Positions 2,461 through 25,704 of a DNA stretch of 25,704 nucleotides are shown piece after piece. The DNA is taken from IMG/VR virus record IMGVR_UViG_3300017965_000011, positions 1-25,704 of that record. One strand, given 5' to 3'. The notes under the pieces were generated by a model, which ran no database searches, had not been told where the DNA came from, and saw only the letters and a list, made by a program, of their open reading frames with translations. The position numbers and the translations under genes were made by a program. The DNA comes from a virus (taxonomy: Duplodnaviria > Caudoviricetes). Each line of letters opens with the position of its first letter. The first letter of the stretch is position 1.

Positions 2461-4086
2461 GTGTTCGTCCCCGCGCCGGCGCTCGAAACCGAGGTTCCGC
2501 ATAAGAAGGCTCGCCCGTTCGAGCTACCTGAAAGTTACCACGGTTCGGTCTTTGGCTCGATTGCCGACCTCCTGGATCCTCCCATTGACTTGTGGTGGAT
2601 GGATCCGAATGCCTGGGCGGCAGCGAACATCGATGGTTGGGACCCCGCGCCTTACCAGGCCGAGTGCCTTTTGCACTTGGCAACACATCACCGCGTTAGT
2701 GAGCGTGGTCCCCACGGACTGGGCAAGTCGTCGATGGCTGCCATTGCGGTCCTGTGGTTCGTGGATACGCGCGATCGGCGCGGAGTTGACTGGAAGGTTG
2801 TCACTACAGCCTCGGTGTGGCGCCAGCTGACTCACTTCCTCTGGCCTGAGATTCGGAAGTGGGCTGGTAAGCTCAAGCACCGGAAGTTCACCAAGTTCGA
2901 ACTTCTGACACTCGAGATCAAACTCAAGACCGGCAGCGCTTTTGCCATTGCCTCAGACGAGCCCGAGAACCTTGAAGGTGCGCACGCGGATCATATCCTC
3001 TACGTGATTGACGAGGGTAAGAATGTACCGACACCTACCTGGGACGCTATCGAGGGTGCCCTCAGCACGGGTGAGGCGTACTGTCTTGCTATTTCCACAC
3101 CTGGTAAAGCAGAAGGCCGATTCTACGAGATCCAAACCCGTAAGCCCGGAACCGAAGACTGGTGGGTCAAGCACGTAACTCTCCAGGAGGCCATTGACTC
3201 CGGTCGAATCAACCCAGCGTGGGCGGAGCAGCGTAAGAAGCTGTGGGGTGCTACTTCACAGACTTACCTGAATCGTGTGCTCGGTGAGTTCGCTACGGAC
3301 GATGCCCTTACGAACGTCATCCCGCTGACGTGGGTCGAATCGGCCAACGAGCGGTGGCTTGAGCTTTACGCCCGGGACAGGCACACCCGCACGTCTCTTC
3401 CGAGACATCCCGACCCAGAGGTCATGTTCGAGCAGGTCTACTTGCGGAACATTGGTGTCGACGTTGCGTATATGGGCGACGACATGACGATCCTCGCCCC
3501 CCTGTACAGTAACGATTCCATTCCGTACATCGAGTCGTTCAGCCGTATCGACACCCAGAACACTGCAGGTAAGGTCGCCGCGAAGTTGAAGAGGGCGAGG
3601 ATCCTGGCAGATGAAGCAGCGACAGCAGGGCTTTCGCGACCCCCGGAAGCGTACGCGACCATCGACATCATCGGTGTTGGTACGGGCGTTGTCGACGCAG
3701 TACGCGTCCAGGGACTGGCGGTGGATGCGTTCAACGGCTCGGAAGGGTCCGACAAGACCGACATCACGCGCGAACTCGGGTTCATCAACAGGCGGGCGGA
3801 AGCGTGGTGGAAGCTCCGTGAGGCACTCGACCCTGCGTTTCATCCCACCTTGGCCCTTCCCCCGGATGACGTCCTCATCGGAGACCTGACCGCTCCGACT
3901 TGGAGTACGACGGCCCGAGGTAAGGTCCAGATCGAGACTAAGGACCAGATCAAGGCGCGCCTCGGACGATCCCCGGACAAGGGAGACGCTGTAGCCCAGG
4001 CTGTCGACGGCCGGTCTCCTCAGGGTCCGCTTACCACTCTCAGCTTCGTGTCGTTCGACAAGACCTCAGCGTGGGGCACTACCTAG
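2461..4086 (+). CDS. terL: Terminase large subunit
   Basis: Walker A GPHGLGKS, Walker B LYVIDEG, motif III ISTP, nuclease motifs GVDVAYMGDD and GRSPDKGDA. Start codon uncertain (no clear RBS). Confidence 0.95.
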   Translation: MFVPAPALETEVPHKKARPFELPESYHGSVFGSIADLLDPPIDLWWMDPNAWAAANIDGWDPAPYQAECLLHLATHHRVSERGPHGLGKSSMAAIAVLWFVDTRDRRGVDWKVVTTASVWRQLTHFLWPEIRKWAGKLKHRKFTKFELLTLEIKLKTGSAFAIASDEPENLEGAHADHILYVIDEGKNVPTPTWDAIEGALSTGEAYCLAISTPGKAEGRFYEIQTRKPGTEDWWVKHVTLQEAIDSGRINPAWAEQRKKLWGATSQTYLNRVLGEFATDDALTNVIPLTWVESANERWLELYARDRHTRTSLPRHPDPEVMFEQVYLRNIGVDVAYMGDDMTILAPLYSNDSIPYIESFSRIDTQNTAGKVAAKLKRARILADEAATAGLSRPPEAYATIDIIGVGTGVVDAVRVQGLAVDAFNGSEGSDKTDITRELGFINRRAEAWWKLREALDPAFHPTLALPPDDVLIGDLTAPTWSTTARGKVQIETKDQIKARLGRSPDKGDAVAQAVDGRSPQGPLTTLSFVSFDKTSAWGTT

Positions 4087-4096
4087 TCGTCGTCGT

Positions 4097-4131
4097 GCAG
4101 GGCAGTTCTTCCTCCATCCGGACTGCCCTGC
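4097..4131 (+). terminator. GC-rich hairpin after terL (12-bp stem, loop TTCCTCCATCC); terminator or regulatory
   Basis: GCAGGGCAGTTC / GGACTGCCCTGC with one G-U pair. No classical U-tract. Confidence 0.6.
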
Positions 4132-4147
4132 TCCCTTAAAGGACGTC

Positions 4148-4177
4148 TTGGCATTCGCTGGGGACCTGTTATATAAT
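4148..4177 (+). promoter_or_regulatory. Sigma70-type promoter, probably giving a leaderless mRNA starting at ATG 4184
   Basis: TTGGCA (4148-4153), 18 nt, TATAAT (4172-4177). An in-frame ATG starts 7 nt after the -10 box, with no SD. Confidence 0.75.
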
Positions 4178-4183
4178 GATGAC

Positions 4184-5029
4184 ATGACCGGGATGACCTA
4201 CCGGGAGCCTCGGCTCCAGCAGCAGATCAACCAGTTCGACCCGTATGGCGGAAAGAACTGCACTGCGTATTGCGCCGCAATGGCAGCAGACGCAGACAGT
4301 CGCGGTAAGTACGCCTACACGGGGGCGCAGGTTCGTCGGTCGACAAACGAGCCGTACCCCGACCCCGACTCTCCAGGATTGACACTCGGCCAGGTCGATA
4401 CTGCCCTTTACAAGATGTCTGGGGGCGACGTCAACCTCGACGTCCACTACGGCATCTCCGACGACACCACGATGGCACGACTCCGCGCAGGGCAGTGGGC
4501 GATCGTTCAGGTGCAGCGATCCGTCCTCCGCAAGTACGGGTACGGCGAAGAGAAGCCGTTCGGTGCCGGGCACGCCATCATCGCCGGATACCGACAGACG
4601 GATAAGGTCCCGATTATCGGCGACCCGCTGATCTCGTACTGGATGCCGTTGGAGAAGTGGTCTCACCTCTTCGAGGCAGCAGGGCAGCTGGTCATCCGTC
4701 CTCGAACAGGCGAACGTCTTGGATATGGGCGAGTTTACGCCGCCTTTACGCGCGACGTCTACAGTGTGTCGGTGCCGACACCAGTCCCGTCCCATTACAA
4801 CGCCTTCTTCGAAGCCGGTTCCTTCTGGCTCTACACCGTTGTTAACGGCGTCATCACTAAACGTGAGGCACGCCGGTTCGAGCAGGACACCAGCGCCCCA
4901 TGCACAGCGGCAACGTTTTTCCCGTGGCCAGGCAACACTCAGCGTCGGTTGGCGCGCATCCTTAAGGGCGTTCTAGCCGGGAGTTATGTCGAACCCGGCT
5001 CGACCAACGTCGTCGTACGGGCAGCATAG
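4184..5029 (+). CDS. C39-like (papain-fold) peptidase with C-terminal domain; putative endolysin
   Basis: Q...NCTAYCAAMA (Cys), GHAIIAGY (His), IIGDPL (Asp); PTPVP linker then a ~75-aa C-terminal domain; lies upstream of a holin-like gene. Start reassigned to ATG 4184. Confidence 0.7.
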   Translation: MTGMTYREPRLQQQINQFDPYGGKNCTAYCAAMAADADSRGKYAYTGAQVRRSTNEPYPDPDSPGLTLGQVDTALYKMSGGDVNLDVHYGISDDTTMARLRAGQWAIVQVQRSVLRKYGYGEEKPFGAGHAIIAGYRQTDKVPIIGDPLISYWMPLEKWSHLFEAAGQLVIRPRTGERLGYGRVYAAFTRDVYSVSVPTPVPSHYNAFFEAGSFWLYTVVNGVITKREARRFEQDTSAPCTAATFFPWPGNTQRRLARILKGVLAGSYVEPGSTNVVVRAA

Positions 5030-5041
5030 GGAGGTCTGCAC

Positions 5042-5191
5042 GTGGGGACAAGGGACACGAGGATTCACACCGAGCCGGAGCCCGGAGGGGCATGGCCTGA
5101 GCCCGGTGACGAGTCCGAACTGGATCCGGACCCGGCTACTGAGGACGACGGTCCGAAGAATGACGAAGTGCCTGTGGAGGAGAACGGTTAA
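5042..5191 (+). CDS. Unannotated 49-aa highly acidic, Pro-rich peptide
   Basis: RBS GGGAGGT (5029-5035), GTG 5042, MGTRDTRIHTEPEPGGAWPEPGDESELDPDPATEDDGPKNDEVPVEENG. Its TAA overlaps the next ATG (TAATG). Confidence 0.75.
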   Translation: MGTRDTRIHTEPEPGGAWPEPGDESELDPDPATEDDGPKNDEVPVEENG

Positions 5192-5745
5192 TGCTCGAGC
5201 AAGATCCCGTAACAATCATCATCTACGCGTTCGTGCCGCTGATCGCGTCGCTGGTCAAGCAGTCGGGGTTCACGCCGCAGGTTAACGCGCTGATCGCGTT
5301 CGGCGTGTACATCGTGGCAGGTATCCTCGGGGTGATCTATTCCGGTGTGGAGCTAACGGCTACAACGGCCATCTCCGCGATCGCGATGTCGACGATCACC
5401 GGTTCGGTTGCCTACAAGCTGTTCTGGACGAACCTTGGCCGGACGTCAGAGGGCGACCAGAGCGTCGAGGAGCGGCTGACGGAGATGACCTCGATCGTCA
5501 AGCCCGCCGTCAATGAACGGGAAGCTAACGCCGTCGTTCAGCCGGCGATCTCCGGAACACTGACGGCCGAGCAGGCAGCCGAGGTTCAGGCCCTCATCCA
5601 GGACGCCGTGTCCAAGACGCAGCGGCCATCAGACCCAATCATGGTGGCGACGACGAACCCGGAGGGCCTAGCAGCCGCGAGGGCGGCTGCGAAGGCTCCC
5701 AGTCGACCCCGTGGTACTGGCGGTAAGTTCACCAAGAACCAGTAG
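5191..5745 (+). CDS. Holin-like membrane protein with long soluble C-terminal tail
   Basis: Three hydrophobic segments in the first ~80 aa, RBS GGAGGAG, follows the putative endolysin. Confidence 0.7.
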   Translation: MLEQDPVTIIIYAFVPLIASLVKQSGFTPQVNALIAFGVYIVAGILGVIYSGVELTATTAISAIAMSTITGSVAYKLFWTNLGRTSEGDQSVEERLTEMTSIVKPAVNEREANAVVQPAISGTLTAEQAAEVQALIQDAVSKTQRPSDPIMVATTNPEGLAAARAAAKAPSRPRGTGGKFTKNQ

Positions 5746-14995: not shown

Positions 14996-15405
14996 CCAAG
15001 CACCTCGGACATAGGTCCGTCAAGGAGTGTCAGGCGTGGGTCGACTCCCTCGAGTTCGCCGAGTGGATGGCACTCGACAACATCGAACCGTGGAGCGATC
15101 GGCGCATCGACATTTGGTACGCTGCCGTAATCGCCGCGCTCGTCAATACCAGTATCAATGCCCCTAAAGAGAAGGTCAGCCCCGCTGCCTTTATTCCGGA
15201 CTGGTGGAAGGTTGTTCGGGACTTCATCGAACAGCAGGAAGCGGCTTCGGATATCGAACGTGCGGACGCTGAAGCATTGTTCGCCCCCGATGAGGTAGAG
15301 GTCGAGCAACAGTCCCAGGACATCGATGAGTTCTGGGCCAAGATCGTGCTCGCCAACAAGGCTCTAGGGGGTTCGGAGGTAACGGAGGAAACAGACTCCG
15401 CTTGA
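14959..15405 (+). CDS. Frameshifted extension of tail chaperone (gpT-like part of a G-T fusion 14567-15405)
   Basis: The -1 frame reads RPERRVWFQLTKHLGHRSVKECQAWVDSLEFAEWMALDNIEPW..., continuous with the track ORF 15067-15405. Confidence 0.85.
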   Translation, partial: GKRPERRVWFQLTKHLGHRSVKECQAWVDSLEFAEWMALDNIEPWSDRRIDIWYAAVIAALVNTSINAPKEKVSPAAFIPDWWKVVRDFIEQQEAASDIERADAEALFAPDEVEVEQQSQDIDEFWAKIVLANKALGGSEVTEETDSA

Positions 15406-18400
15406 GTACGCTTGCGGTCTTTGATGTCATCATCCGCGGCGACACTTCGGGGCTGCGTAAATCCCTCAACGACGGTCAGGCGCAGGTACAGGGCTTCTTT
15501 GGCTCGGTCCGGCGCCTGACTGCTGCCTTCCTTGGGGCAAGGGCGATTGAAAGCGCCATCCAAGGCATTGCACGTACGGCGACCCAGGCCATCATGGGTA
15601 CCAACGAACAGCTCGAGTCCGCAACATACAGGTTCGCAACGCTGTTCGGGGACTTTGAGAAGGCCAAGGCCCTTGTCGGGGAACTGGCGCTCGTTGCTGC
15701 GGAAACCCCTCTGTCCTTCCTTGAGGTTGTGAAGGGTGCGCAGTATCTGCTCCAGTTCGGTGGGGCTGCCCTTAACACCAAGGCGAACCTGATCCTCCTC
15801 CAGGACACTGCAGTTGCAACAGGTGCGAACTTCGAACGGATCTCGTTCTGGGTCGCTCGTGCATATGCCGCACTGCAGGCTGGACAGCCGTTCGGCCGCG
15901 CTCGTCTCTCCCTGATGCAGCTGGGCGTTATTCTACCACAGACTGCGGCCAAGATCGAGCACCTGCAGAAGACCGGCGCGAACTGGCGCGAGCTGTGGGA
16001 CCTGATGGTCAAAGACATGCTCCGGTTCCAGGGAGCAGGCCTCCGTCAGATCAATACCTGGAAGGGTCTGTCGGTCGCCGTTGCTGACTTCTTCGACCTT
16101 GCCGTTGCCCAGGCCTTCGAACCGCTGTTCCAGGCAGCGAAGCGACTCTTCGGCACCATCCTTGGGATCTTGCGGTCGGGCGATACCCAGTCCGCCCTCG
16201 GACAGTTTGCAGACGGGCTCGGAAAGGTTCTCGCCGTTGCTGAGCTGGTCGCCGGCGGACTTGGAGAAGTATTCCGGGGCTTTATTGCAGGAGCCCAGAA
16301 CCTTGCCGGGATTATCGTCAATACCGTCGGTGGGGCATGGGACGGGTTGATGCAGTTTGGGGCCGACCTGTACTCAGGCGGTCTCGCCGCGATCCAGTCA
16401 TACGCACAGGGCATTCTGGACGGCGCGGTTATGTACGTTCAGGAAGCCATCAGCTACGTCATCTCGTTCATTGCCGGGTTCCTCATTGGACAGTCGCCTC
16501 CGCCTAAGGGCCCCCTGAGCCAGATCTACAAGGGCGGTCGGAATACAATCGAGGCCTGGGTCGAAGGAGCCCTGTCCGCTGATCTCACCCCCGTTGAACG
16601 CATTCCGAAGGTCATTGCCGGGACGGTAAAGCAACTCGAGGCGGCCCTCGCATACGCTGACCGCCGAATCCGGTCTCTTGACGACTCCATCTTCGCGCTC
16701 GACCTGACCATCGCGAAGTTCGAGAAGCGGATCGAGAGTGTCCGGGAAGAGTTTACGGACAAGATGAAGCCGGCGCAGGATCGGATCAAGGCAATTGACC
16801 GTGAGATCAACGTTCTGCGCCACTCGTCCGAACAGCTTGAACGTCAGGTACGGGACATCAACGAGGCCTTTGAGGCAGATGTCAAGCCGTTCCAGGATGC
16901 AATCGAAGGCATCAACGATCAGATCGAAGGACTAGACCGGGCCTCCCGAAGCATCGACAAGCAGATGCGGGCGATTGAGAAGTCGGCCTCTGCAGTCAAG
17001 AAGCAGTACGACGCCCAGCTCAACTCCATGGAGAAGCAACTCAAGGCCGTTCGTAACGTCCTGAGTACCCAGGACAAGCTTAAGACGAACAGCCTGCGAC
17101 TCCAGCGGAATGAGTTGGAGATTGCCTTTATCCGGGCCGAGGGAAACGAGGCTCTTCAGGAACAACTTCAGGCGCAGATGGACTCGTTGGACAACGTGAT
17201 CCGGCTGAACGACCTGGAGAACGAGAACAAGGAACTCCGGGCCGAGATGGTCGCCATCCCCCTCGAGGAACAGCTCGAGGCAATGCAGGATGCGGCCGAA
17301 GGGATCATGGAGCCGTTCGATGCAGCCCTTGATGTCCTCAAGGGACAGCAGGACGCGATCGCCGAGAACCGTGAGGGACTCGAAGACCAGATCGGGGCTT
17401 ACGAGGACCTGATCGCCAAGGCTGAAGAGGCCCGCGATAAGTTGCTAGCCCCCCTTGAGGCCCAGATCGACACGATCGCCCGGCAGATTGAAGTTCTCGA
17501 GGACGAGCGGTACGCGCAGGAGCAGATCGTCCAGACCCTTCAGGACGAGATGGATGCCCTCATTACGCCCCTTGAGGACCAGCTCAAGATCTACCAGGAT
17601 CAGCGGGCTGAACTTGAGGAGCAGCGAAAGATCTGGACTGAGATTCGTTCCAGGATCCAGGATGCTTACTCCGTCGCTAAGGAGGCCGAGGAAAAGGCTA
17701 AGGCGGGGAAGAAGGGTGCAGGGGCGCCGGACTTTGGCCCCGACCCGTTCCGGCCCGACCCGGCCATCACCAAGGCTACCGTTGATGCAGCAGAGAAGGC
17801 GGCTAAGGCCGCGCATGAGGCAGCGCTTGCGGCAGCCAAGGACTTCGTCGATAGCTTCACGGGGTTCCTCCGAGATAACCTGCCTACCGTTGTAGGGGCG
17901 GTGTTCGGCTTCCTCACCGGAGGGTTTGCCGGGGCAGGGCTCGGTGCGGTAATCGGGGCAGCACTTCAGAATACCATCTTCGGCAGTATCGAGTTCGACA
18001 TGGAGGCAGTGTCCGGTCAGCTCGGTAGCGCTATCGGGGCGGTGCTCGGGTTCTTTGTGGCCGGCCCTCTGGGGGCGATTGTCGGGGCTACCTTTGGTAA
18101 TCTGGGGGGCCAGCTCCTCGAGCAGATCTTTGGTACACTGACCGCACCCGGGGCAGCAGAGTCGCTCGGCGGTCAGGCGAGTGGGATTGTCGACGGAATC
18201 GTCGTCATGCTCCAAGGGGCGATCGACGGTGCGATCCTCTGGCTCCAGAATGAAGGCCTTCCGATGCTGGGCAATCTCGTTACTGCCCTCATCACAGGCA
18301 TCCAGCAGTTCTTCCAGTCGATTGACTACCAGGGACTGCTCCTCGGGTTCTTGGATCTTCTGTCCCGCCTCCTGATTGCCGCTGGTAACTGGACCCTTAA

Positions 18401-19589
18401 CGAGGGGATTCCGCTTCTCGCGACCATCGTCACTAACCTTGTAGGTGGAATCGCACTCCTAATCTCCAGTATCGACTGGGCCGAAGTCGTCAACCTGTTC
18501 GGGGCATTCCTCGACAGGATGATTACATGGATCACCGACGTTGCGATTCCGAAGCTTGGTGAGTACGCACAGGAGCTTGGCAACGCACTCGGAAAGATCG
18601 ACTGGGAAGCGGTACTTACTCAGTTCGGTCAGTTCCTTGTAAGCGTTGGAATGTGGGTTGTAAACGACGTCATTCCGGAGTTTATCAGGGTCGGCCAGGA
18701 TGTAGGTGGCAAGCTCCTCACAGGTATGGGCGATCTGATCCTGGGCAGTGATGGCCTGATTGCAAAGTTCCTTGGGTGGATCGCATCAGTCGACTGGGGC
18801 AAGGTCTTCACGACGATCGTGGAGAAGGGCGGCGAGGTCGCGGAAAACCTCCTTACAGGCCTCGTTGACTTCTTCATCGCGGAAGACACGGGTATCATTC
18901 CGCAACTGGTCAATGCCATTACCAGCATCGAGTGGGGCGACGTCTACGACTCCATCCTGAAGATCGGCAACGAAGTTGCACTGAGCCTGATTGGGGGCTT
19001 CGGTGACTTCCTCTTCGGGAAGAACGGTTCGAAGGGGCTGTTTGCAACACTCTTCGGGGTCATCTTCGATCCGGGCGGACTGCAGGACCAGATCTTTGGG
19101 ATCCTGGGTAAGATCGGCCAGATCGGCATCGATATGGCAACCTCACTCGGGAAGGGGTTCGCAAACACCCTGGTGGAGATTATCGAAGGTGCCGTCAACG
19201 CAATGATCGACGGCATCAACGGCCTTCAGATCCACTTCAACGGGCTCGAGACTCCGTTCGGGAAGCTCGCAGAGTTTCACTGGAACGGTCTGGGAATCGG
19301 ACGGATCAAGCTTCCGCGGTTCCACGAGGGCGGATACGTTCCAGGCATGCGGAACGCAGAAGTCCCGATCCTCGCTAGGGCCGGTGAATTGGTTCTGACC
19401 GAGGCGCAGCAGAAGGGTCTTGGCGGGGCACTGATCGAGAACTTCCACTACCATGCAGGTCCAGGAGAAAGTAAGCTCGACCGGATGCGTAACGCTCGCG
19501 AGCTTACCGAGGCGATTGAGGAGCACCTGTACAACCGCGGCTACCCATTGAAGCCGCATCGACCAGGAACAGTGGCAGGAACAGGATAG
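15402..19589 (+). CDS. Tape measure protein
   Basis: 1395 aa after the chaperones. N-terminal tape-measure motif (AAETPLSF.EV), central coiled coil, Gly-rich hydrophobic segments, ID(W/Y) repeats, C-terminal FHEGGYVPG...EVPILARAGELVLT. Confidence 0.93.
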   Translation: MSTLAVFDVIIRGDTSGLRKSLNDGQAQVQGFFGSVRRLTAAFLGARAIESAIQGIARTATQAIMGTNEQLESATYRFATLFGDFEKAKALVGELALVAAETPLSFLEVVKGAQYLLQFGGAALNTKANLILLQDTAVATGANFERISFWVARAYAALQAGQPFGRARLSLMQLGVILPQTAAKIEHLQKTGANWRELWDLMVKDMLRFQGAGLRQINTWKGLSVAVADFFDLAVAQAFEPLFQAAKRLFGTILGILRSGDTQSALGQFADGLGKVLAVAELVAGGLGEVFRGFIAGAQNLAGIIVNTVGGAWDGLMQFGADLYSGGLAAIQSYAQGILDGAVMYVQEAISYVISFIAGFLIGQSPPPKGPLSQIYKGGRNTIEAWVEGALSADLTPVERIPKVIAGTVKQLEAALAYADRRIRSLDDSIFALDLTIAKFEKRIESVREEFTDKMKPAQDRIKAIDREINVLRHSSEQLERQVRDINEAFEADVKPFQDAIEGINDQIEGLDRASRSIDKQMRAIEKSASAVKKQYDAQLNSMEKQLKAVRNVLSTQDKLKTNSLRLQRNELEIAFIRAEGNEALQEQLQAQMDSLDNVIRLNDLENENKELRAEMVAIPLEEQLEAMQDAAEGIMEPFDAALDVLKGQQDAIAENREGLEDQIGAYEDLIAKAEEARDKLLAPLEAQIDTIARQIEVLEDERYAQEQIVQTLQDEMDALITPLEDQLKIYQDQRAELEEQRKIWTEIRSRIQDAYSVAKEAEEKAKAGKKGAGAPDFGPDPFRPDPAITKATVDAAEKAAKAAHEAALAAAKDFVDSFTGFLRDNLPTVVGAVFGFLTGGFAGAGLGAVIGAALQNTIFGSIEFDMEAVSGQLGSAIGAVLGFFVAGPLGAIVGATFGNLGGQLLEQIFGTLTAPGAAESLGGQASGIVDGIVVMLQGAIDGAILWLQNEGLPMLGNLVTALITGIQQFFQSIDYQGLLLGFLDLLSRLLIAAGNWTLNEGIPLLATIVTNLVGGIALLISSIDWAEVVNLFGAFLDRMITWITDVAIPKLGEYAQELGNALGKIDWEAVLTQFGQFLVSVGMWVVNDVIPEFIRVGQDVGGKLLTGMGDLILGSDGLIAKFLGWIASVDWGKVFTTIVEKGGEVAENLLTGLVDFFIAEDTGIIPQLVNAITSIEWGDVYDSILKIGNEVALSLIGGFGDFLFGKNGSKGLFATLFGVIFDPGGLQDQIFGILGKIGQIGIDMATSLGKGFANTLVEIIEGAVNAMIDGINGLQIHFNGLETPFGKLAEFHWNGLGIGRIKLPRFHEGGYVPGMRNAEVPILARAGELVLTEAQQKGLGGALIENFHYHAGPGESKLDRMRNARELTEAIEEHLYNRGYPLKPHRPGTVAGTG

Positions 19590-19590
19590 C

Positions 19591-19974
19591 ATGAGTGTAG
19601 TCCTTACCTTCCCCGATCTAACGGTGGTCACACTGCCTGCCCCTGCAGTGGCCTCTAACCCTTCCCGCGGCCCCGAAACACTTGAGGCACGCGAACGAAC
19701 GGTTGAAGGGGTGCTGCGCGTTAGGCGGACATCGTTTAACTGGATCTACCGGATGGGCTTCCGCGGAGCGGAGCGTAGCGTGTACGACGCCCTTGTGAAT
19801 GCATGGGCGGATGCAGCCTTGAGCGGGACGTTCCCAACGATGCTGGCTACCGACCATTTCCAGACCGCTGACAACGTTCAGGTGGCACTAGAGATCGGGG
19901 ATGACACCCTTATCCCCTTCAACCCAACTCTGTGCCACTTCAATATTACCGTGACGGAAGTATACCCGCGGTGA
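19591..19974 (+). CDS. Putative distal tail (Dit-like) protein
   Basis: Immediately after the TMP, 127 aa, beta-rich, ends FNITVTEV. Assignment mostly by synteny. Confidence 0.6.
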   Translation: MSVVLTFPDLTVVTLPAPAVASNPSRGPETLEARERTVEGVLRVRRTSFNWIYRMGFRGAERSVYDALVNAWADAALSGTFPTMLATDHFQTADNVQVALEIGDDTLIPFNPTLCHFNITVTEVYPR

Positions 19975-19981
19975 GGGCGTC

Positions 19982-20500
19982 ATGGTCCTAGCTCAGGCCG
20001 ACTTCGAACTTTACCTTACGGTCCGTGAGGGAGTGCAGGGCTTTTCTGTGCCGCAACCAGACCCCAGTCAGTCGCGCGGGCAGTATGTTTCGACTACTCC
20101 CCTTCAGTCCGGGAAGTTGCACGGGCTGTTCTCACGAATCAAGCCTCCGATGTCTGCCTCTGGACTTGTCGACTACAGGGCGATTGCTCTCCGGAACAAG
20201 TCGGTAACAGACCCAGCAAACGTTAGGGTCACCCTTATCGACGCGATGGCTGGTGCGCGGTACGCTTTCGGGTTTGACCCAGTTGGGCAGCGTCCTTACA
20301 ACTCTCCTATTTTCCAGGCCCAGTGGATTGCATCCCCTACACACAAGCCGACCAATGTAACGTTCACGAGTGGAACGGGGGCGCCACAGTTGGTGACGCT
20401 GCCTCCGAATACCGTGATCGTGATCTGGATTCAGCGAACAGTACTTCCTAAGACACCCGCCGTGGCAACCGATACAGCCCAGATCGTCGTGGACGCATAG
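19982..20500 (+). CDS. Hypothetical tail/baseplate protein
   Basis: RBS GAGG. G.VDYRAIALRN and IWIQRTV motifs; position in the tail module. Confidence 0.65.
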   Translation: MVLAQADFELYLTVREGVQGFSVPQPDPSQSRGQYVSTTPLQSGKLHGLFSRIKPPMSASGLVDYRAIALRNKSVTDPANVRVTLIDAMAGARYAFGFDPVGQRPYNSPIFQAQWIASPTHKPTNVTFTSGTGAPQLVTLPPNTVIVIWIQRTVLPKTPAVATDTAQIVVDA

Positions 20501-20501
20501 C

Positions 20502-21989
20502 ATGGCGATCCGTACAGTACCGGCACAGCACGCTACCATTGGTGCTGCTGTTACAGCTTCGACAACCGGCGACATCATCAACGTCTCAGCCGGTACGTAC
20601 CGCGAGCACGTCATCATCCCCTTGGCCAAGACCCTGGAACTTAACTTTGCCATCGGAGCGGTCATTGATGGTCGTGACGTAGGCGGAACTATGGTCCGGA
20701 GTCGCTGGATCGAAATCTTCTCCCCGAATACCATTGTCCGTAACGCAACGTGTATCTACGCGAACAACAACGTAGGGGGCGATGATCGAGGGGCGCTGTA
20801 CATCGACCCTTCAGCGGCCGGAACCCAGATTCTCGGTGGCGAGTACGCCTACGCACTCGGTCGTAATATGATGACCGGACGGGCAAGCAACACCCTCGTA
20901 GATGGCGTAAATACCCACCACGGCGGTTCGCTAAATATCCACTTCGGCGGAATTGGGACAGGGTGCGTTGTACGTAACTCGCTAATCCACCACGCGAATG
21001 AACCGCGTCCGTGGCAGCCCTTTATGGGGGGTACTGCCACTTCGCCGGCTGCCCCATACGTTCTGTATGCCGGTGGACCGCTTGTCATTGTGAGTACAGG
21101 CTGGGAGTCCGGGGGCACTAAGGGGATCAGCCACAGCGGTATGATCTTCGAGAACAACGAGGTATATAACAACATCGGTCCGGGGCTGTGGTCCGATAGC
21201 GTCCCGCCGAACCCCCAGACCGCGAATTGGATCGTCCGGCGCAACGACGTTCACGACAATGCGGGGAGCGGAATCTTCTGCGAGGTAACCGCAGGCGGAC
21301 AGATCTACGAGAACTACGCCCACCATAACGGCGGCTCCGCATCCCAGGCCGGCTCCGCATACTACGGTAATGGAAACATTACGGTGTCGTCGTCGAAGGA
21401 TGTTTCCGTTCATCACAACGTAGTCCAGGGTGGGTTGATCGGGGTCAACTTCTTCGCACAGAACCGCCCTGATCGTCCCGGAATCTCAGATGGGACAGCT
21501 GGACAGAACCTGTGGGCCTACGAGAACTGGTTCATCTCGGACGTGAACAACTGGATCGCACTGGGGTGGGCGAACGAGAGTGACCCCATCTTCACTACGG
21601 GTGGAGGGTGGCTGAACCAGTTCTGGTGGCCGACTGCTGACGGGACCTCCGGTTCGCGGTTTGCGTTCCTGGGTGAGAAGAGTACTATGGCTGCCCTCAA
21701 CTCCACTAATGGCGGTAACAGGAACGGGGCCGGAGCCAGCTTCTACATGACCACTGCTGTCAAGGATGGCATCCTGGCGGGAACGGGGCCTGGCGGGGCG
21801 GTGTTCGCGGCTGCAGGTCCCATCTCTGGCACGACACCGCGGACGCTTATTCCTACCGGAATTACAAGTGCCCAGACGTTCGGGACAGCCACCATCTACA
21901 TCTCCCGGCAGACCGTCTCTCCGGCTGGTATCGCCCCACCGGGCGGAACCACGGTTACCATCATCGCGTCAGACTCGTACTCTAGGTAG
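20502..21989 (+). CDS. Right-handed parallel beta-helix (pectin lyase-like) tailspike/receptor-binding protein
   Basis: N-terminal VP..HATI.AAV.A...GD.I.V.AGTYRE cap and repeated rungs (FENNEVYNN.GPGLW, VRRNDVHDN.GSGI, YENYAHHNG). The C-terminus carries fibre-type linker repeats. Confidence 0.82.
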   Translation: MAIRTVPAQHATIGAAVTASTTGDIINVSAGTYREHVIIPLAKTLELNFAIGAVIDGRDVGGTMVRSRWIEIFSPNTIVRNATCIYANNNVGGDDRGALYIDPSAAGTQILGGEYAYALGRNMMTGRASNTLVDGVNTHHGGSLNIHFGGIGTGCVVRNSLIHHANEPRPWQPFMGGTATSPAAPYVLYAGGPLVIVSTGWESGGTKGISHSGMIFENNEVYNNIGPGLWSDSVPPNPQTANWIVRRNDVHDNAGSGIFCEVTAGGQIYENYAHHNGGSASQAGSAYYGNGNITVSSSKDVSVHHNVVQGGLIGVNFFAQNRPDRPGISDGTAGQNLWAYENWFISDVNNWIALGWANESDPIFTTGGGWLNQFWWPTADGTSGSRFAFLGEKSTMAALNSTNGGNRNGAGASFYMTTAVKDGILAGTGPGGAVFAAAGPISGTTPRTLIPTGITSAQTFGTATIYISRQTVSPAGIAPPGGTTVTIIASDSYSR

Positions 21990-24900
21990 TAGTACATGCC
22001 GCTGACTCGCGTCCAGTTCGTCACGCACGAGGAGGCGGTCTCTCTCGTCGCCAACACGACTACGATCTCGGCGCCGGCCGTCGGGTCGTTGATCGTAGCC
22101 GCGATCGGCGGAGATAAGAACCTGGGCGCGGATCTGGCCGTACCGTCAGGTTTCACCCGGGTCGGCAGTCCGTACATCGGTGCGAGCACAACGCGCGACC
22201 TCGCGTGGAAGATCAGCGACGGCACCGAGACGAACATCGTCTGGGCGTACGGCGGGGCTGGCCAGACCGGCAACAACTCGCTCATGGCCGTTGCCGTCTA
22301 CACCGGCAATGCCGCATCACCGTTCGACGTAGCGGCCGCCAACGACAGCGCCAACGCCAACGTGTCCTCGCTCGCGACAGGCACGACCGGGGCCACGGCA
22401 CAGGCCGACGAGCTTGCTTTCGCCATCGCTACGATCGACTCTACGGGCGGCGGCAAGACGCCATCGTGGGATAGTGGTTTCACCCGGATCGGTACCGACT
22501 TCTACGGCAGCAACGCGGGACTGACGATCGCCGAGAAGGACCTGTCCTCGACGGGGGCAGTATCGGCAACAGTCACCTTGGCCGCAGGTAGCGACCAGAT
22601 GGCGGCAGCTGTTGTCACCTTTAAGGCGTCACTAACACAGACCATTTCCGGCGCAGGGGGCATTGCCAGCGCTGAGGCCCTCGGTACAACTGCCGTCGCT
22701 AACGTTCTAAGCATCCTGAACCCAAGCGCGATCGCCTCGGCAGAGGCCTTCGGCACTGCGGTATTCTCTACTGCCATTACACTCCTCCAGGATGGGTTCG
22801 ATCGGACTACAACGTCTCCTGTCGTTGGTACTCCTGATGTCGGACCGGCGTGGGTCGATGCCATCCTGGACACGGGAGACACAGGGGCGTGTAATGGGTC
22901 CGTCTTTGTACATACGGCCTCATCGAACGACTCCTACTGCTATGCCGACAACCCTGTGGACGGGGTTGAGGACCTCCTATTCGCCGTATCCTCGGACAAG
23001 CTGGCGAGCGGTGGTAACCCCCACATCGAGATGGTCGTGCATGCAGTCGGGGCGCAGAGCTTGCGTGCCGACTTCCGTATCCGTAACACCGACCAGCTAA
23101 TCTCGGCCCAAGCGCTTCACTGGAACGGCAGCTCCGACATCTCCGTTACCTCGATTACGGTCAGTAGTGTTACCCATACAATAGGGGTTAAGCACTGGTT
23201 CCGTGTCCAGGCGGTGCGTGAGTATTCGGGCGGTGTTGCTACAGGGGTACGGATTCGCGCTCGGGTTTGGAATGATGGAGACACTGAACCCGGAACCTGG
23301 CTAATTGACGCAGTCGATACAACACCCGCACTACTGTTCCCCAGCGAGATGATCGACGTCTCGACACGGCTGGGCAGCGGAACCAACAACGCTCCTGTCG
23401 TCTTTACCTGGCACTCCGTAGCTGCAACCAAGACGACACAAGTCATCAGTGCTTCGGGTATTGCCAGTACCGAAGCCTTCGGTACCGCGAAGCTAAACCA
23501 GATCATCGCACCCCCCTCCATTGACAGCGGCGAGGGGTTCGGTACCCCTACGTTCGCCGCTACGACGATTGCGCGTGACGCCTTTAATCGGGTCGAGGCG
23601 GCCGGCAGTATAGGTAATGCCGATGTAGGCGGGGCATGGACGCCCTACACATACGTTGAGCCAAGTACGGCGCTCCGGGTTAACGGCACTGCGTTCGAAT
23701 TCACCCATATGGTTGTCAATGACGGCGGAGGTGGAGCGACACTGCCGATCGCTACGCGGGACATGGAGATCAATCTCCGGTTCCGCCGCGACAAGATTGC
23801 CAGCTCAACTACCCAATACTTCTACCTTCTGTTGCGGGACGATGGGGCTGGGCATCGCTACCTTGTTACCATCCGTTACCGCAATAATGGGACCTTGACC
23901 CTTGAGGTTGGCGGGACGAGCAGCGTTGCAACTGCGGACATTACTGCACGTGAGGGGGCGCCGGAGCCAAACGTCTGGGTGTTGGTACGTGCCCGAATTT
24001 CGGGGGCAAACAATACCGTTCTACGGGTAAAGGCTTGGAAGGAAACGCACTCCGAGCCTGCTGGTTGGGACATCGATGTTACTGATACGGGCGACGTCGG
24101 GCCACAGGTCGCCGGCTCGTTCGCGTTCGAGTTCTACAAGGGGGCGAATACCGTCCCCGTCATCTCTGAACTCGACGACCTTGTTATTTCCTCCATCCCT
24201 GACCGGTTCATTACCAGTGTCGGGGCGATCACCTCACAGGAAGCATTCGGAACTCCGGCGACCTCGGGCACAGGGACCGTCGTTATTGATGCCGACACGG
24301 TCGGCATCGAGTCGGCAGAAGCATTCGGCACGCCATCGCTTGCCGGCTCCGGCCTGGGCACTTCAGATCTGGGTGGGGCGTACTCGGTATACACGGCCAC
24401 TGGATCACTACCCCCGGATGTAGTTCCACCTGACTTCGGCGGCGTAAGTGCCAAGAGCGAATCCAACAACGCGAACCTTACTGTTACGCTCCCCGCGGGA
24501 CTAGTCGCCGGCGACCTAATGGTTGCATGCGTGTACTTCCGTAACCGTACAGGTTCGATCTCCACTCCCGCCGGGTGGACGCTCCTCACTCCGCCGGGAG
24601 CCGGAATTCACGCTACCGGACCTCTGCAGGCTGGCGTTTACACCCGCTTCTGGCAGTCAGGCGATGCGGCACCAGTGTTCGTCCCCAGCGGGGGATCGGC
24701 AGGCGATACTCTCCTGGGACAGATCTTTATCGCCCGAGGTGCCAACGCTACTCCGATTACGGTCGCAACTGCGTGGTTCCAGGGAACGACGGCAACCAAC
24801 TCTGATCTCCCAGTTCCGGTCGGAGGCTCGCTTACGGCAGAAGCCGGAAGCATGGTTGTCCTCCTCGGTATCGTCCCAGATGACTATACGGCTCCGGACT

Positions 24901-25703
24901 CCGTCGACACGCTGACCGGTAACGGATTGACGTGGAATGAGATCAGTGAGGTAAACACTACACTCGGCCTGGACGGGTCGTTTGTTTGGGATTACGCCCA
25001 GATCGGCGGAGCCGCTGTCCCGATCTCCGACAAGACGTTCGCATCAACCGCACGTGCATCAGGAGGGTCTAACTCACCATACCTGAGCATCGGGTTCGTA
25101 ATTCGACCGGCGATTACACTGGCTCCGAGCATCGGAGCGGACTACTCGACCGATGGCTCTGTTGCTCGTGTTCGGCACAGTCTGCCTGATCAGTCCCATT
25201 TCGCCGCACTCATGTCTGCAACGGGGCAGGACGTACACGTTCAGGTATGGCAGCGCTTCCCCGGGGCTCCGAGCAGCGGGTTCTCCCATGCCGGAGTACT
25301 TGCCCGAGTCGTAGACATTGCGGGGACGTACTACGTCGGGCAGTTCTCCATCGACAGCTCGGGGAACTGCTTCCTCATCGTCGGGTACCATTCCGGAGGT
25401 GTCGCAACAACACTGTCGGCCATAGTCATTCCGGATCTCGAGTTCAATCCTGCGTCCCGGTACCTTATCGAACTTGAGACCGTAGGGACGAATCCGACGT
25501 CCATTCGTGCCCGAGCTACTGAGGAAGGGGCTGTTGCCGGTTCTTGGCTCATTCAGCTAGTAGACTCCGCCGCAGCACTGCAGGTTTCAGGAGGTGCGGT
25601 TGGATGGGCGAACTCGGCCGGTAACTACCCCTCATACCCCGTCTACTTTGAGGTAGACGACTTCTTCGCTACGGCTGCGACAGCTACGGCTGAGGCATTC
25701 GGA
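21858..25703 (+). repeat. Dispersed GIASAEAFG-type linker repeats, mostly in pairs
   Basis: Copies at about 21858 (GITSAQTFG), 21927 (GIA, interrupted), 22659, 22728, 23457, 23517, 24225, 24303 and 25686 (TAEAFG). Confidence 0.85.
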
Positions 25704-25704
25704 A
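21996..25704 (+). CDS. Very long modular tail fibre/adhesin-like protein, runs off the window (over 1200 aa)
   Basis: ATG 21996 (AGGT upstream), MPLTRVQFVTHEE...; I found no in-frame stop to the window end (...FEVDDFFATAATATAEAFG). Alternates beta-sandwich domains with paired (G/A/S)I.S.E(A/G)FG linkers. Absent from the ORF track because it lacks a stop. Confidence 0.88.
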   Translation, partial: MPLTRVQFVTHEEAVSLVANTTTISAPAVGSLIVAAIGGDKNLGADLAVPSGFTRVGSPYIGASTTRDLAWKISDGTETNIVWAYGGAGQTGNNSLMAVAVYTGNAASPFDVAAANDSANANVSSLATGTTGATAQADELAFAIATIDSTGGGKTPSWDSGFTRIGTDFYGSNAGLTIAEKDLSSTGAVSATVTLAAGSDQMAAAVVTFKASLTQTISGAGGIASAEALGTTAVANVLSILNPSAIASAEAFGTAVFSTAITLLQDGFDRTTTSPVVGTPDVGPAWVDAILDTGDTGACNGSVFVHTASSNDSYCYADNPVDGVEDLLFAVSSDKLASGGNPHIEMVVHAVGAQSLRADFRIRNTDQLISAQALHWNGSSDISVTSITVSSVTHTIGVKHWFRVQAVREYSGGVATGVRIRARVWNDGDTEPGTWLIDAVDTTPALLFPSEMIDVSTRLGSGTNNAPVVFTWHSVAATKTTQVISASGIASTEAFGTAKLNQIIAPPSIDSGEGFGTPTFAATTIARDAFNRVEAAGSIGNADVGGAWTPYTYVEPSTALRVNGTAFEFTHMVVNDGGGGATLPIATRDMEINLRFRRDKIASSTTQYFYLLLRDDGAGHRYLVTIRYRNNGTLTLEVGGTSSVATADITAREGAPEPNVWVLVRARISGANNTVLRVKAWKETHSEPAGWDIDVTDTGDVGPQVAGSFAFEFYKGANTVPVISELDDLVISSIPDRFITSVGAITSQEAFGTPATSGTGTVVIDADTVGIESAEAFGTPSLAGSGLGTSDLGGAYSVYTATGSLPPDVVPPDFGGVSAKSESNNANLTVTLPAGLVAGDLMVACVYFRNRTGSISTPAGWTLLTPPGAGIHATGPLQAGVYTRFWQSGDAAPVFVPSGGSAGDTLLGQIFIARGANATPITVATAWFQGTTATNSDLPVPVGGSLTAEAGSMVVLLGIVPDDYTAPDSVDTLTGNGLTWNEISEVNTTLGLDGSFVWDYAQIGGAAVPISDKTFASTARASGGSNSPYLSIGFVIRPAITLAPSIGADYSTDGSVARVRHSLPDQSHFAALMSATGQDVHVQVWQRFPGAPSSGFSHAGVLARVVDIAGTYYVGQFSIDSSGNCFLIVGYHSGGVATTLSAIVIPDLEFNPASRYLIELETVGTNPTSIRARATEEGAVAGSWLIQLVDSAAALQVSGGAVGWANSAGNYPSYPVYFEVDDFFATAATATAEAFG

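Follow-up and report, generated by a model that had tools for sequence, protein, structure and literature searches.

The last two genes of the phage contig IMGVR_UViG_3300017965_000011 (IMG/VR; Caudoviricetes) raise the question of how a protein domain is put together when its coding sequence is distributed over two genes. The window analysed is the whole of this 25,704-nucleotide (nt) contig. Gene X encodes a β-helix protein, and gene F, which follows it, encodes a fibre with three homologous B domains, B1 to B3. The sequence-only reading of this DNA had described B3 as a domain in two parts, its first strand lying at the C-terminus of X and the remainder in F. The split across X and F stands, though B3 is encoded in three pieces rather than two, as a 243-residue domain (24408-25136) also interrupts it. 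The pieces, their order and their exact complementarity are observed. We consider it fairly probable that X and F re-join through the last strand of X, which would complete B3, a domain left in three pieces by insertion into an ancestral fibre gene.

The third B domain and its pieces

The features of X and F are the following, all on the + strand (aa, amino acids).

20502..21989, +: gene X, 495 aa; right-handed β-helix at about residues 12-429, then one and a half SAEAFG-type repeats and the candidate donor strand
21837..21887, +: complete linker repeat in X (..LIPTGIT-SAQTFGT); left half 13.5 bits, right half 11.2 bits
21906..21935, +: lone left half-repeat RQTVSPAGIA, the top left-half score in X or F; no right half follows in X
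21936..21986, +: piece b, linker and first strand of B3 (profile positions 5-17), C-terminus of X; adds 13 bits to d and f
21987..21995, +: TAG TAG TAC between X and the ATG of F; X and F in one frame
21996 to contig end, +: gene F, 1,236 aa, open at 25704
21996..24335, +: block c, the first 780 aa of F; A1, two repeats, B1 (22782), two repeats, B2 (23568), two repeats
24336..24407, +: piece d, B3 profile positions 18-38 (SLAGSG..GGAY..TGS); 10 bits alone
24408..25136, +: block e, second A-type domain A2 with Pro-rich linkers, 729 nt in frame inside B3; 30% identical to A1
25137..25685, +: piece f, B3 profile positions 39-222; 103.6 bits in a six-frame search
25686..25703, +: lone right half-repeat TAEAFG; F is cut by the contig end

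A search with residues 755-1236 of F against 1.84 billion representatives returned two kinds of match, to A-type and to B-type domains, most of which fell on block e. The starts of the B-type matches read xxASDxFxR-(5 aa)-WGxADxGGxY-(5-8 aa)-ADYxVDG in one stretch. A B profile was built on 38 intact homologous domains, none from the window; the training set was chosen by the D-x-F/Y-x-R motif and favours that motif by design, and background scores come from this profile as well. The profile recovered B1 and B2 whole in F (73.8 and 118.8 bits) and the third domain as positions 21-38 and 39-222, 243 residues apart.

The C-terminal 12-mer of X scored 17.0 bits as strand 1, as compared with 13.9 and 19.6 bits for the intact strands of B1 and B2. 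Homology of the end of X (TIIASDSYSR at 21957-21986, directly before TAG TAG) to the DxFxR-type strand, as proposed earlier, is thus borne out. The residues of F ahead of SLAGSG gave -8.5 bits and the best nearby segment 2.3 bits; in the sequenced part of F, the third domain therefore appears to have no first strand of its own, also as proposed. A score of at least 17.0 bits was reached by two of 38,943 six-frame 12-mers of the window (the end of X and domain 2), by none of 2,530 C-termini of open reading frames (ORFs) and by none of 487,112 background 12-mers from fetched loci. No other free strand-1 motif is present in the six frames of the window. Pieces b, d and f together scored 138.3 bits with no large gap, as compared with 125.3 bits without b and 124.8 bits with F's own upstream residues in its place. 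Since this three-piece score exceeds those of intact B1 and B2, B3 shows no sign of decay.

The positions given previously for LLQDGFDR (22782), IARDAFNR (23568), SLAGSG (24336) and TAEAFG (25686) are all correct. TVSPAGIA is present as well and starts at 21912; the 21927 assigned to it, 15 nt downstream, is the position of its G. The second interruption of B3 by a 729-nt in-frame insert and the frame shared by X and F had not been recorded. SL follows GTP in 11 of 203 repeats, and the SL of piece d may belong to the tail of the preceding repeat.

The linker repeat, for which half-repeat scoring was derived from 852 repeat units, gives the order of the pieces. As a left half, RQTVSPAGIA in X scored 19.5 bits, where true left halves have a median of 13.3 and the background does not exceed 7.3 (n = 5,014). 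TAEAFG scored 16.6 bits as a right half, and the residues ahead of it gave -12 to -26 bits as a left half. The repeat left unfinished in X is completed after the third domain, in agreement with the sequence-only reading. Because a lone left half ends X and a lone right half follows piece f, the locus parses as nested, a[b (c) d (e) f]g: the repeat encloses B3, and B3 encloses both c, which is 2,349 nt long and includes the stops and a start, and e, an in-frame stretch of 729 nt. Block c would then be an insert of 2349 nt counting from 21987. An interleaved parse, in which ITLAPSIG at the C-terminus of A2 is the left half of TAEAFG, was rejected (-0.5 bits, as compared with 19.5 bits for the half in X).

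The G+C content at third codon positions (GC3) is 0.60-0.64 over most of the insert and 0.62-0.68 in the flanks. Only A1 deviates (21996-22631; 0.80, as compared with 0.60-0.68 across the other parts of X and F), and it is possibly a separate import.

A model of B2 (predicted local distance difference test, pLDDT, 85.6) has a strand at TIARDA, the homologue of the tail of X. It is a jelly roll like those of concanavalin A (ConA), GH16 and PL14 (Z 15-17, root-mean-square deviation (rmsd) ~3 Å, 170-205 residues, whole length aligned), the comparison with 6kcv giving Z 17.1 and rmsd 3.2 over 201 residues. Among the structural matches are a minor tail protein of a Streptomyces phage and, from phage J-1, the CBM2 that its evolved Dit carries as an insertion (5ly8); at 5-14% identity and with tied rows among these matches, no ligand or activity is assignable to B2. 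By profile homology, B3 probably shares the ConA-like jelly-roll fold. A single-sequence model of 24258-25703 was uninformative (pLDDT 35.4), covariation across 81 domains gave no usable strand-pairing signal for strand 1, and sequence searches of the PDB with B1 and with the B alignment returned no match at a useful E-value. For a calcium site between b and f, of the kind present in GH16 enzymes, no literature support was found, and it plays no part in the argument.

Splits and insertions in related domains

A motif scan of viral contigs for the B domain gave 61 distinct strong matches: 43 are intact, 14 are cut by the locus end, three are split across two genes and one carries an in-frame insert. 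Two scans seeded with a hydrolase returned 160 loci, and in 23 of these a poly-γ-glutamate hydrolase (PF05908) is fused to B positions ~46-221. In all 23, the upstream gene ends with B positions ~8-46 and a stop.

~3950-5220 in each of L247-L259, L261, L348-L353, L355, L356 and L358: split tail/hydrolase loci

Nine hydrolase-split loci lie in named Streptomyces genomes. Every upstream protein (23/23) matches the post-tape-measure gene of phage Dubu, Yara or Gibson, and four of five ORFs tested further upstream match tape measures. Intact relatives are Dubu gp16 and Gibson gp24, and Yara gp22 is a nested form. The hydrolase splits resemble that of the window in affecting one domain family, whose C-terminal part has passed to an inserted gene that has a start of its own, the N-terminal part being left to the gene upstream. 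They differ from it in the cut (45/46 and not 17/18), in the host protein, in having no SAEAFG repeats and in being conserved in many genomes.

Among 20 distinct split loci, the upstream stop is TGA in 14, TAA in four and TAG in two, the next start lies -1 to 4 nt away, and the two genes are out of frame in 13. Given the varied stops and the short distance to the next start, readthrough is not a general explanation of these splits. The dangling fragment is 65% identical between split loci and the upstream body 41% (the fragment is higher in 187 of 190 pairs); the corresponding values in 12 intact controls are 51% and 35%. Judged by these identities, the fragment appears constrained relative to its protein as in the intact controls. 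Its uncorrected ratio of nonsynonymous to synonymous polymorphism (pN/pS) is 0.46 (46 pairs, 13 loci).

In a quick version of the tree, in which three split rows carry a wrong label, the hydrolase splits form largely one branch (support 94; it also contains two intact domains), and thus count as about one event kept over long divergence and not as 23. Piece f falls outside this branch, which fits an independent event in the window; its own position is weakly supported.

Both insertion loops of the window are used elsewhere. In gp22 of Streptomyces phage Yara (L428:1374-5918), a complete second B domain is nested in frame right after strand 1; its first D lies 12 residues past GGE, a spacing shared with 20 of 22 intact proteins, and the outer domain picks up again at position 19. 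In L147:4860-8090 (-), ~280 aa are inserted in frame at position 37 of a B domain.

The family of hydrolase splits is of interest independently of the window and lends itself better than the latter to experiment. With a conserved split in named Streptomyces genomes and cultured intact (Dubu, Gibson) and nested (Yara) relatives, it is directly testable. The insert of L147 looks glycoside-hydrolase-like by eye (no Pfam call), and at L361:3893-6007 (Micromonospora) a long ORF is followed by a hydrolase in fusion with an intact B domain plus another domain that is tail-like.

Origin, docking and rival explanations

Donor-strand docking in trans and insertion of a block into a once continuous gene had been offered as alternatives. 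The two do not exclude each other: the split probably arose by insertion, and docking is probably what the proteins do now. The insertion of a block with its own start codon, splitting an ancestral fibre gene, has good support, since strand and half-repeat, two independent features, complement each other in nested fashion and the same loops carry insertions in other phages. The ancestor would have been a single gene for β-helix, repeat and half-repeat [B3] half-repeat. Two loops of B3 would have received inserts: A2, in frame, at profile position 38/39, and at 17/18 a fibre head A1-B1-B2 that brought its own stop and start. Pieces d and f would fold in cis with A2 looped out, and by analogy with L147 there is good reason to expect such folding around A2. 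X would supply strand b, and perhaps the missing half-repeat too, non-covalently. The outcome would be a Y-shaped fibre with one stalk and two N-terminal arms (β-helix; A1-B1-B2); such a branched fibre follows if docking holds.

That docking of X on F in trans is the present function seems reasonably likely by analogy with the conserved split in the same domain family, and is supported also by the lack of an N-terminal anchor in X. Only 11 residues precede its β-helix, which leaves no room for an N-terminal anchor domain; X is thus without an anchor of the branched-tailspike kind.

Donor-strand complementation and exchange are described for chaperone-usher pili (FimA; PMC5798934). The window is alike in that a terminal strand of one protein is homologous to the strand missing from the β-sandwich of another. 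In the sequenced part of F, B3 appears to lack one strand in cis (-8.5 bits, as compared with 13.9-19.6 bits), and this strand is a terminal extension of another polypeptide, namely the last 12 residues of X, at the C-terminus and not the N-terminus. Unlike in pili, the B2 model is a jelly roll rather than an incomplete immunoglobulin-like fold without its C-terminal strand, the first strand and not the last is missing, and the donor is a C-terminus. Furthermore, the arrangement would be a one-off branch and not a polymer, its acceptor is itself in two pieces, it would have arisen by gene insertion, and it has no chaperone or usher: the 26 proteins scanned, from this part of the phage genome, represent a siphovirus head-tail module only, with no dedicated chaperone/usher.

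In Klebsiella phage KP32 and its kin, an anchorless second β-helix protein is described as held on the first by a peptide of 7-29 residues (PMC13352976, PMC6872550), and branched tailspikes as using an N-terminal anchor (PMC13352976). The KP32-type peptide lies at the N-terminus and has an intact T4gp10-like branching domain as its partner, whereas in X the β-helix begins at about residue 12 and the candidate peptide is C-terminal and corresponds to a missing part of the acceptor fold. The end of X would thus serve the purpose of the conserved KP32 peptide in another way. In known branched phage receptor complexes, attachment depends on a peptide and on a dedicated branching domain, and their fit has to evolve. 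For capsids, strand exchange has been described (PMC7385642). Searches of the open-access literature gave no report of this domain split, and in the only virus paper with a donor-strand match (bioRxiv 10.64898/2026.09.13.751334) the match concerned host fimbriae. If X docks on F, for which the balance is moderately favourable, the window feature would be a new form of strand complementation, in a phage tail and in a jelly-roll fold.

Several points weigh against docking. The donated piece is ~12 residues long in the window, as compared with ~45 in the hydrolase family. In that family the enclosing tail domain is apparently split too (motifs on both sides), so that selection may act there on a larger interface. 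The intact domain L137 nests inside the split clade; it is possibly a product of re-fusion or recombination. A lone left half-repeat near the C-terminus occurs also in five of 73 repeat ORFs with a real stop. Proteins P0076 and P0094 look complete, yet hold the B domain only from position 37-40; going by them, f-type pieces may fold or persist without b. They are 43% identical to each other, have an unknown N-terminal domain, adjoin piece f in the quick tree (Shimodaira-Hasegawa-like approximate likelihood ratio test, SH-aLRT, 86) and possibly represent a third split site. Searches of viral contigs with piece f or with X gave no close relative of the window phage, nor did searches of protein clusters with F 760-1236, with X or with the 172-aa gene. 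As no relative with the cut of the window was found, selection on piece b is not measurable, and a recent insertion would look alike.

Part of this evidence favours a relic, i.e. a recent insertion of the fibre head that left b as a functionless remnant, B3 folding without b or being dispensable. The feature is known from a single genome with no relatives found, the donor piece is short, P0076 and P0094 retain the domain without positions 1-36, and in L362 a split pair has decayed to a short upstream ORF and a broken hydrolase frame. On the other hand, the GC3 of the insert is mostly like that of its flanks, no other attachment module is visible in X, and the analogous split has been kept across 20 diverged loci. 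We regard a relic as unlikely, though it is the rival that survives best.

A first strand supplied from elsewhere (the unsequenced remainder of F, in a permuted order, or another gene), with X at most one of several plugs, would draw on the fact that F is open at 25704 and its rest unsequenced. The six frames of the window hold no second candidate strand, however, and the half-repeat pairing singles out X, which makes this source quite improbable.

Readthrough of TAG TAG would give one X-F polypeptide, whose B3 would be complete in cis but interrupted by 783 residues, in the manner of Yara gp22 with its in-frame insert at the same loop. The common frame of X and F and an insert length that is a multiple of 3 count for it, and against docking. 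However, the stops are two in succession, TAG ends 11 of the 24 listed genes (after two of these, the next start is in another frame), a shared frame is expected by chance in one of three gene pairs, and 13 of the 20 split relatives are out of frame. Readthrough is accordingly very unlikely. Recoding of TAG was rejected as well. The TAG TAG TAC stretch is covered without differences by a run contig spanning 17901-23304.

Removal of the 2349-nt block from the DNA or the RNA, with a fused fibre as the alternative product, had also been suggested, and exact excision would restore a single reading frame. The suggestion is unsupported and highly improbable. In-register junction homology is 0-1 nt, with no terminal repeat of >6 nt, Rfam gave 0 matches at E 1 across 19500-25704, and the block is wholly protein-coding, so that it resembles neither a self-splicing intron nor an excisable or invertible cassette. 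The window DNA is present in one public run, X1 (a soil metagenome), and in no RNA data set among those listed. The contigs of X1 bridge the stops and both ends of block e and contain no joint of the flanks (contigs drop rare variants). A chimeric misassembly is scarcely credible: positions 24216-24306 are uncovered by the listed run contigs, the c/d junction has 29 letters on its left where 31 are needed to count as bridged, and X1 is probably the source of the window and hence not an independent check, but separately assembled contigs are identical over 17901-23304, which includes b, the stops and the start, and over 24307-25660, which includes d, e and f, and the complementary strand and half-repeat across the uncovered gap, which a two-phage chimera would not yield, argue for an origin of both its sides in one genome.

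If X and F do re-join through the first strand of B3, the lectin-fold domain may be a reusable socket in phage tails, with whole genes, stop and start included, inserting into its N-terminal loops and the severed pieces re-pairing on the virion, independently at 17/18 (the window phage, in which three pieces from two proteins would rebuild the domain) and 45/46 (prophages bearing the hydrolase) and possibly at 37/38 (P0076 and P0094). We hold the arguments for and against such a socket to be evenly balanced. Were it true, a new enzyme or adhesin arm would be attached in a single mutational step, without an evolved docking domain. Gene fission inside a foldable domain would create plug and socket together and already fitting each other; the addition of depolymerases to tails would be explained in this way. 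Two-chain legume lectins and circularly permuted concanavalin A exist; they arise via cleavage of one precursor. The split pair suggests a natural short tag/catcher pair.

Genomic context and the repeat family

The window has a siphovirus gene order (terminase, portal, protease, capsid, connectors, tail tube, chaperone, tape measure), and two small genes separate the tape measure from X. No recognisable tail hub/Tal gene lies between the tape measure and X (15402-20500); it may be placed in the unsequenced end of F or beyond. The closest cultured-phage capsids are 43-46% identical to that of the window. Scans for patterns in which piece d comes immediately after a repeat returned 8 loci from viral contigs, none with a domain match, and 21 loci from metagenomes, of which only L332 is real and is identical to the window; the patterns used fixed codon or gap choices, which relatives may escape.

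The β-helix of X matched PF13229 (E 1.2e-7, 31.9 bits, cut-off 25.9), the right-handed parallel β-helix found in trimeric tailspike depolymerases, and is probably a glycan-binding or glycan-degrading module. Its residues 12-429 are 33% identical to the C-terminal domain of P0152, a hypothetical protein with no trimer annotation; a PDB sequence search with X gave no match at a useful E-value. Tailspike, the term applied to X in the sequence-only reading, is a putative assignment. The sequenced part of F had no Pfam or PHROG match, block e (A2) fell in no Pfam family, and the A domains have no assigned fold.

Minor tail proteins with the GIASAEAFGT repeat form a family that is widespread among phages (118 loci). 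Phrog_13352 matched 29 of 30 scanned proteins, the thirtieth being a non-repeat protein. No solved structure of the repeat was found, and PDB sequence searches with two repeat proteins gave no match at a useful E-value. The intact domain at L137:4863-5513 (-), noted above, has no hydrolase motif in its locus. The SAEAFG repeat is ~20 residues long and occurs in up to 45 copies (L003-L119), often with domains inserted mid-repeat, as seen by eye in L051, L058 and L071. Repeats precede the C-terminal structural part in L010, L030 and L036 and are N-terminal in L004 and L043; in L010 and L030 they are fused to a head-closure domain.

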